Notes under the pieces: model-generated
Databases searched by the model: none
The model's input: the letters and a program-made list of their open reading frames with translations, nothing else
Told to the model about the DNA's origin: nothing
Made by a program: the position numbers and the translations under genes
Assembly (NCBI RefSeq): GCF_988242995.1
Contig: NZ_OZ547043.1
Length of the DNA stretch: 64,000 bases
Direction: 5' to 3' (one strand)
Shown here: piece by piece, positions 47,229-47,831 of the stretch
Numbering within the stretch: the first letter of the stretch is position 1
How the letters are laid out: every line of letters begins with the position of its first letter

Positions 47229-47831
47229 ATGAAACAACAGTATCAGACCCGCTACGAATGGCTCCACGAAAGCTACCAGAAATGGCTGACCGGCTTCACC
47301 CGGCACGCCGTATCCTGGGGCGTGTGTCATCCGAATATCTACTACTTCCATAATCTGACGCCCGGTTGGGTGTCATTCAATGGTGAAAAACCGGAGATTG
47401 CCATCGTACCCCAGAGCCTGCACCGGCTGATTTATGGCCCTGACAAACGGGCCACGCCGCCCCTGGATGATGATCTGATTGTGAATTTATGCACCAGTGA
47501 ACATCTGCTGGTTCATCATCCGATGCTGGAAGGCATTCTCCTGTCTGAATGTGAACGTCTGAGGCAGCGTTCTCTGGCAAATAAACTGATCAGCCTCTTC
47601 CGTCAGTTTGGTGGCACGGAGTTGCGCCTCAAACTGGTCTGGCTTTGCTGGCTTGATTTAATGACCGGAAACAGCCTTGAAGACTGGAAAGAGAACCTGA
47701 AACGGAAATCAGAAAAAGAGCTGGAGGAATGGATCATCAACCGTCAGAGGCAGAGCGCAGCACTGACGGATCTGATGGATCAGTACGTGCTCCTGGCATA
47801 CCGCACAACGGTTGACGATAGCCGCAACTGA
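47229..47831 (+). CDS. Hypothetical protein, about 200 aa, unknown function
   Basis: ORF with GAGGA RBS 8 nt upstream of ATG 47229; charged helical C-terminus; no family recognised. Confidence 0.55.
   Translation: MKQQYQTRYEWLHESYQKWLTGFTRHAVSWGVCHPNIYYFHNLTPGWVSFNGEKPEIAIVPQSLHRLIYGPDKRATPPLDDDLIVNLCTSEHLLVHHPMLEGILLSECERLRQRSLANKLISLFRQFGGTELRLKLVWLCWLDLMTGNSLEDWKENLKRKSEKELEEWIINRQRQSAALTDLMDQYVLLAYRTTVDDSRN

Follow-up and report, generated by a model that had tools for sequence, protein, structure and literature searches.

The gene at 47229-47831 (+), referred to here as X, is a real protein-coding gene and a core, or backbone, gene of Enterobacterales islands with a P4-type integrase, SRL-PAI/CP4-like elements of which the present one sits at tRNA-Phe. 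Judged by gene order and sequence comparison, X forms a fixed two-gene unit with the alpA gene that precedes it, and this unit lies at the edge of a variable slot in an island family that is a defence hot spot. X is ordinary in that it had already been annotated as a hypothetical protein, and notable as an abundant, tightly constrained and structurally unassignable gene at such a hot spot, where it is the backbone partner of an AlpA/Vis-type regulator. The features used below are those of the window, meaning the whole stretch of 64,000 nt of contig NZ_OZ547043.1 (assembly GCF_988242995.1) that was analysed:

38647-38722 (+): tRNA-Phe, detected by ARAGORN; integration end of the island
about 38920-40185 (+): P4-type integrase, from the RefSeq annotation of the identical region
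43529-44050 and 43951-44358 (-): overlapping DUF7828 and zinc-ribbon genes (Pfam DUF7828, Zn_ribbon_11)
44612-45217 (-): YagK/YfjJ ("inovirus Gp2 family") gene (Pfam YagK_YfjJ_C 6e-48, REP_ORF2-G2P 4.5e-5)
45876-46220 (-): Hha/YmoA-like gene, divergent from alpA
46521-46787 (-): 88-aa hypothetical gene, divergent from alpA
46928-47134 (+): alpA, an AlpA/Vis-like HTH gene of 68 aa, from Pfam, PHROG and synteny
47158-47201 (+): imperfect two-stem hairpin in the alpA-X spacer, from folding and alignment
47216-47220 (+): Shine-Dalgarno sequence GAGGA of X, 8 nt before the ATG
47229-47831 (+): X, from ATG 47229 to a TGA ending at 47831, 200 aa, with a ribosome-binding site upstream; RefSeq CDS
47832-49031 (no strand): unannotated 1.2-kb stretch without a convincing gene, the variable slot
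49032-49949 (+): 305-aa hypothetical gene, backbone neighbour
49971-50906 (+): YeeP-type GTPase gene, backbone neighbour

Gene X and its protein family

The good ribosome-binding site with which the open reading frame had been credited (GAGGA at 47216-47220, 8-nt spacing) was confirmed in the sequence, and in the spacer alignment it is kept in other genera as an equivalent GAAGGA. The in-frame alternative starts, GTG 47214 and ATG 47223, lie inside this site or too near to it, and all the X homologues of other genera start with MK- at the equivalent position. In identical islands of E. coli, RefSeq holds a CDS for exactly X (WP_000813456.1, "hypothetical protein"), and an identical copy occurs in an E. 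coli genome with a fec/SRL-type island. X also goes under the labels SRL PAI orf42 and "Aec62" (APEC island), the latter being one database entry's name for a relative of X and an island ORF label without function. On the opposite strand, RefSeq lists a 65-aa hypothetical protein (WP_001333284.1) at 47737-47934 (-), antisense to the 3' end of X; since X is under purifying selection, this is probably a spurious call.

In the SRL PAI of Shigella flexneri, orf41 is given as "Vis (P4)" and orf42 as having "no similarity", within the order IS66, YfjJ-like orf39, Hha-like orf40, orf41, orf42 and orf43-45, continuing with the YeeP-like GTPase orf46 and Ag43 orf47 (PMC6980539). This orf42 is X itself with the same neighbours, and nothing sets the two apart. 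Our searches of the literature for the X accession, "Aec62" and the neighbouring genes returned only ORF tables, with no function reported, and a function for X, once defined, would close a gap of long standing, that of orf42, in what is known of CP4/SRL-type islands.

Among 5.8 billion proteins, a word-indexed search returned 188 homologues of X at E<=1e-3, many of them full-length (195-200 aa) and 54-65% identical, from Yersinia, Klebsiella, Salmonella, Serratia, Hafnia, Pantoea, Cronobacter and Enterobacter. With a profile of the X family, 1.84 billion cluster representatives were searched exhaustively; this gave 125 proteins, all of which belong to the Enterobacterales X family or are fragments of it, subfamilies at 22-45% identity included; across Enterobacterales, full-length relatives span 22-65% identity. 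When one genome per species was scanned the family was found in 35 loci, and the named isolate genomes among these were Enterobacterales without exception. X and alpA are conserved together in at least 15 genera. Within E. coli, X is present in 3455 of 5426 complete genomes (~64%) with 1-6 copies each, almost always chromosomal, which makes it, at about two thirds of complete genomes and often multicopy, one of the commonest uncharacterised island genes of the species; it is also found in Shigella, Salmonella, Klebsiella, Yersinia and others. Many divergent alleles occur in Salmonella, and pairs of subfamilies can be found as paralogues in single islands (L010/L011, L024, L032, L034). The paralogues of L010/L011 and L032 stand in tandem directly after alpA (L010 9273-10525), and the second copy of L024 and L034 lies several kb downstream.

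X is nearly absent from phages and genuine plasmids, with a relative in only 1 of 50,697 phage records and the gene rare too in a plasmid collection, at 9 of 72,556 records, several of them of megabase size. The lone phage match, OR851001.1 (3578 bp, "Salmonella phage S.Kent 1-2-1"), is an unannotated fragment with 33% identity to X and may be island DNA that was carried along in a phage preparation.

Values of dN/dS for X were 0.07-0.19 (Nei-Gojobori, pairs with unsaturated dS), and on these codon comparisons the gene is under strong purifying selection. Most copies are intact and constant in length. Some are truncated or frameshifted (P0021, P0024, P0025), the ORF is split in Morganella (L044) and partial in Providencia (L043, L045), and damaged copies of this kind are expected because X is an island gene. 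Apparent fusions of X to a phosphotriesterase (P0128) and to IS1 (P0094) proved to be deletion or insertion artefacts and gave no domain-fusion clue. The original prediction had allowed for a spurious ORF; the RefSeq CDS, the homologues down to 22% identity, the dN/dS of 0.07-0.19 and a confident fold prediction show that X is a real gene, conserved in related islands and mostly undisrupted there.

No family had been recognised for the X protein, and this holds after comparison with Pfam, NCBIfam, PHROGs and PADLOC, which gave 0 families, and with PDB sequences, which gave no match to the single X sequence or to the profile. A BFVD Foldseek search with the X fold likewise gave no match, and in Pfam searches with 55 diverse members of the X family no family recurred at E<=5. 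Those 55 include Pectobacterium proteins named "malate transporter" or "secretoglobin family protein"; the names were rejected, as no Pfam match among the 55 members supported them, and the X model is soluble and helical. From an alignment of 55 sequences covering all subfamilies, AlphaFold2 produced a confident model of X (pLDDT 87.4, pTM 0.85), and from one of 29 sequences a poor one (pLDDT 65). In the confident model the N-terminus forms a long helix, a small region folds as a beta-hairpin, a loop (~70-90) is variable, and six or seven helices bundle together in the C-terminal part; the C-terminal region, earlier proposed to be helical, appears there as helices 151-159, 162-174 and 177-190. 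X is predicted to be a cytoplasmic, mostly alpha-helical protein of 200 aa.

Residues invariant across the family (Y16, Q17, G31, P61, G102, L104, E107, C108, R110, L111, L139, C140, W141 and Y186) are for the most part hydrophobic or embedded in helices, and the HHP of E. coli-type X is lost in distant subfamilies. The pI varies from 5.2 to 9.4, so that the family is not basic throughout. Because of this pI range and of the mostly hydrophobic or helix-embedded nature of the invariant residues, X does not look like a typical DNA binder or enzyme. Taking searches and model together, the X family would be an unnamed one, confined to Enterobacterales, that appears to resemble no known family or solved fold.

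The alpA-X pair and its spacer

The gene upstream of X was correctly taken to encode an AlpA-family HTH protein: it matches Pfam Phage_AlpA (1.2e-8) and HTH_17 (3.3e-8) and the PHROG "excisionase and transcriptional regulator" (9e-10), and weakly the TIGR01764 excisionase domain. We called ORFs in all related loci and searched them with the window proteins and the family HMM. In keeping with the suggested co-occurrence in other islands, 40 of 47 loci have alpA as the gene immediately before X, on the same strand and 41-189 nt from the ORF call; in 46 of 47 it is no more than 3 kb from X. Four loci in which the two are not adjacent have DUF7828 genes between alpA and X, the orientation being shared. 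In the distant subfamily of the P0213 type (L012/L013) an alpA-like gene is divergent and 1.7 kb from X, which indicates that X can have its own promoter.

At the DNA level, the window matches other genera only over 46943-47788, i.e. alpA, the spacer and X. The usual order in other genera is a GTPase gene (-) and a 305-aa gene (-), divergent from alpA (+) and X (+), often followed by YagK/YfjJ and DUF7828 genes, variable DNA and the integrase. In E. coli/Shigella, alpA-X (46928-47831) is inverted as one block with respect to both flanks, and this inversion is seen for alleles of 84% to 100% identity. The inverted block has the YagK/YfjJ part on one side and the 305-aa/GTPase part on the other; the only inverted repeat seen to flank it is a weak one of 32 nt (72% pair, 46831-46862 / 48690-48721), which may be due to chance. 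The K-12 element CP4-6 was considered as a carrier of the pair and rejected, yagK being present and alpA-X absent.

The spacer between the two genes measures 94 nt in the window (47135-47228) and is of conserved length across loci (~95-105 nt), and in the inter-genus alignment its 3' half is better conserved than the coding DNA on either side. Its predicted hairpin has the outer stem GCAGCAGA/TCTGCTGC and a GC-rich inner stem, and is followed on the 3' side by a near-invariant CTGCCTGT(C/A)ATT. The same two-stem hairpin is predicted for 26 of 26 distinct spacer versions, with dG -21 kcal/mol and z -2.0 for that of the window. In the alignment, pairing of the inner 5-bp stem reaches 94.8%, its innermost pair being GC, CG or AU (compensatory changes); the outer stem is 61% paired, a weak support explained by the shifting register of its 5' arm. 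The spacers of L014, L038 and L039 have no such hairpin and that of L005 has a different one. A simple scan gave a terminator-like match at 47185-47201, the hairpin having no clear U-tract, and a scan of the same kind found no sigma-70-like promoter in the 94-nt spacer. Rfam gave no match on the spacer, and the hairpin motif occurs only once in the window. Its role could be that of an attenuator or terminator, of an RNA element, or of a DNA, protein or HUH-nuclease site; where HUH relaxases or Rep proteins nick, the site classically consists of an inverted repeat with a conserved stretch behind it.

As a functional analogy, this arrangement comes nearest to the late-left operon of P4, where Vis (ORF88) comes first in a same-strand array, like alpA before X, and where a transcription-modulating RNA structure lies downstream of vis. 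The P4 array runs into immunity and replication functions, and a P4-type integrase is common to both elements. P4 has no X homologue, however: tblastn found none in P4 or in any genuine phage, and P4 ORF151, which we considered as a relative, was rejected at an hhalign probability of 0.2%. Further, the island has the HUH Rep-like YagK/YfjJ in place of the P4 alpha primase and lacks the sid/psu/delta genes. A second comparison is with P. aeruginosa AlpA, a processive antiterminator with which RNA polymerase can pass the intrinsic terminators that lie ahead of the AlpA target genes (PMC7969949). The likeness to the island AlpA is one of name, and the island gene does precede a terminator-like hairpin, but there the U-tract is not clear and no AlpA-binding element was identified, and we treat antitermination as a lead only for alpA-X.

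Island backbone and the variable defence slot

Behind the integrase, the window has IS remnants and then the module genes that include alpA and X. The minus strand carries, in order, the two DUF7828/zinc-ribbon genes, YagK/YfjJ, the Hha-like gene and the 88-aa hypothetical gene, and the plus strand alpA, X, the 1.2-kb unannotated stretch, the 305-aa hypothetical gene, the YeeP-type GTPase and Ag43. Past Ag43 lies a CP4-type array of IrmA, DUF905, DUF932, antirestriction, RadC/JAB and YeeU/CbtA genes, and an Rfam match to IS102 RNA (51023-51259 (+), 74.6 bits, E 2e-11) was noted just upstream of the Ag43 gene, whose start it overlaps. Only the E. coli/Shigella form of the island has the Hha/YmoA-like and 88-aa genes. 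The 305-aa and GTPase genes are in other genera divergent from alpA and not downstream of X; the 305-aa protein was compared with X as a possible relative and is unrelated.

Gp2/YagK-YfjJ and DUF7828 genes adjoin alpA and X in varying order. At least 26 of 47 loci have a YagK/YfjJ gene no more than 8 kb from X, and the DUF7828 genes of other genera lie between alpA and X or directly past X (L008, L024, L042, L043 and L047-L050, abutting or overlapping X in L047-L050). The translated YagK/YfjJ gene reads an HUH-type motif, KKHYHLMLL, and a later Tyr in RADYLAKE, which suggests that its product could be a rolling-circle Rep or relaxase-type nuclease of the island.

The DNA past the alpA-X(-Gp2-DUF7828) array is different in nearly every locus. 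Those that we inspected contained Dnd, BREX, an HNH gene with a type I R-M system, or McrBC/LlaJI-like genes downstream. We then took the largest downstream ORF of each of 20 further loci as input to a PADLOC scan; 17 of the 20 matched defence models strongly, and there were weaker matches in a few others. The models matched were Gabija GajA, seven type I R-M subunits, ZacC, PDC-M27, Ppl, Hachiman HamB, Lamassu LmuB, PD-Lambda-4 and a type II methyltransferase. The defence systems are found 1-10 kb past the X homologue, on the stretch that separates the alpA-X array from the integrase (L002-L050).

In the window, the stretch at 47832-49031 looks like an empty or decayed cargo slot, corresponding to SRL PAI orf43-45. 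At >=80% coverage it is present in 1286 genomes, versus 3359 for X, and in strain PSJ-14 the slot is occupied by fragments of IS100 and of an AAA-ATPase. P2/P4-like and other integrative elements likewise have a constant backbone gene bordering a varied defence slot; in the literature that we searched, we found no description of the present island family and its flanking alpA-X pair as such. As the most constant feature beside the anti-phage slot, alpA-X could serve as a practical marker for defence cargo.

Possible roles of X

We infer that alpA and X may be transcribed together. Co-transcription fits because the two share a strand, the spacer has no promoter-like site and its hairpin is conserved, and this hairpin may modulate read-through into X. 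X itself would be a soluble, near-neutral, Trp-rich helical protein without a nucleic-acid-binding or catalytic signature, and would most likely assist an AlpA-led module as an accessory factor by contacting other proteins. This module recurrently includes the HUH Rep/relaxase-like YagK/YfjJ and the DUF7828 zinc-ribbon proteins as well, and probably governs the life cycle of the island, that is its excision, its replication or mobilisation once excised as a circle, or the switch that sets these going. Co-transcription with alpA, combined with a protein-binding accessory role of X in island excision, replication or control, is the reading that we tentatively prefer, giving it slightly under an even chance; gene neighbourhood is the one line of evidence behind its functional part. 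Against a functional tie of X to AlpA, linkage by itself would keep two functionally unrelated genes together.

The slot that alpA-X borders invites another reading, in which X serves the defence cargo as a regulator or gatekeeper of its expression, as a self-protection factor that shields the host from newly acquired defence systems, or as an anti-defence protein made on entry into a new cell. The neighbouring systems (Dnd, BREX, type I R-M, Gabija, Hachiman, Lamassu and others), the mostly co-directional orientation of cargo and X, the anti-restriction (KlcA/ArdB-type), RadC/JAB and DUF932 genes of the backbone, the tandem paralogues in L010/L011, L024, L032 and L034, and the numerous divergent alleles within Salmonella would all suit it. 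Nevertheless X stays intact where the slot is empty or decayed, this window included, its dN/dS of about 0.1 is unlike that of most arms-race proteins, it has no PADLOC match, and one X clade adjoins mechanistically unrelated systems, so that we hold a cargo-slot role to be unlikely, if worth keeping in mind. A place for X within the cargo itself is far less probable. The original prediction had X as the first AlpA-controlled cargo gene; the link to alpA stood (40 of 47 adjacent), and the cargo part did not, as the DNA beyond X varies from locus to locus while X is constant, which marks X as backbone. A reading of X as the leading cargo gene, turned on by AlpA, agrees with its position directly downstream of alpA on the shared strand, but alpA-X is kept across at least 15 genera against a background of changing true cargo, and 3455 of 5426 complete E. 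coli genomes carry X; we consider this reading very unlikely.

The two-gene layout, a small HTH protein and then a larger protein of unknown fold, could also be that of an effector, of the stand-alone exclusion/abortive-infection or of the toxin-like kind, with the AlpA-like HTH protein as its repressor or antitoxin. Invariant Ser, Glu, Cys and Arg in GxLxSECxRL and a second invariant Cys in LLCW might then be functional residues, yet they stand in hydrophobic helix contexts and may be structural. Moreover, the structured 95-nt spacer is unlike tight type II TA coupling, the HTH partner belongs to the excisionase/Vis family, X has no similarity to toxin or defence models, and up to 6 copies per genome are tolerated, all of which leaves an effector role improbable. 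A type II toxin-antitoxin pair in the strict sense was rejected, given the structured spacer of 94 nt, the excisionase/AlpA HTH and the lack of a toxin-family match. As for X being a spurious ORF or a decaying pseudogene, the damaged copies (P0021, P0024, P0025, L044, L043, L045) might point that way, but most copies are intact, dN/dS is 0.07-0.19, the ribosome-binding site and start are conserved and the structure prediction is confident, and the chance of it is negligible.

The alpA-X pair is also a candidate control point for island excision, replication or the expression of its load. In a bolder reading, to which we give only a small chance, X would represent a new fold or family that makes up, with the AlpA/Vis-like protein and the spacer hairpin, a two-component switch at the edge of the defence hot spot. 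X could then, for example as a sensor or adaptor in which a death-fold-like bundle of six helices is possible, couple phage infection or DNA entry to induction of the island or to expression of whatever defence system fills the slot. Further, if the YagK/YfjJ protein cleaves the hairpin and CTGCCTGTCATTT specifically, the spacer would be an origin or oriT, and X would belong to a replication or mobilisation complex.
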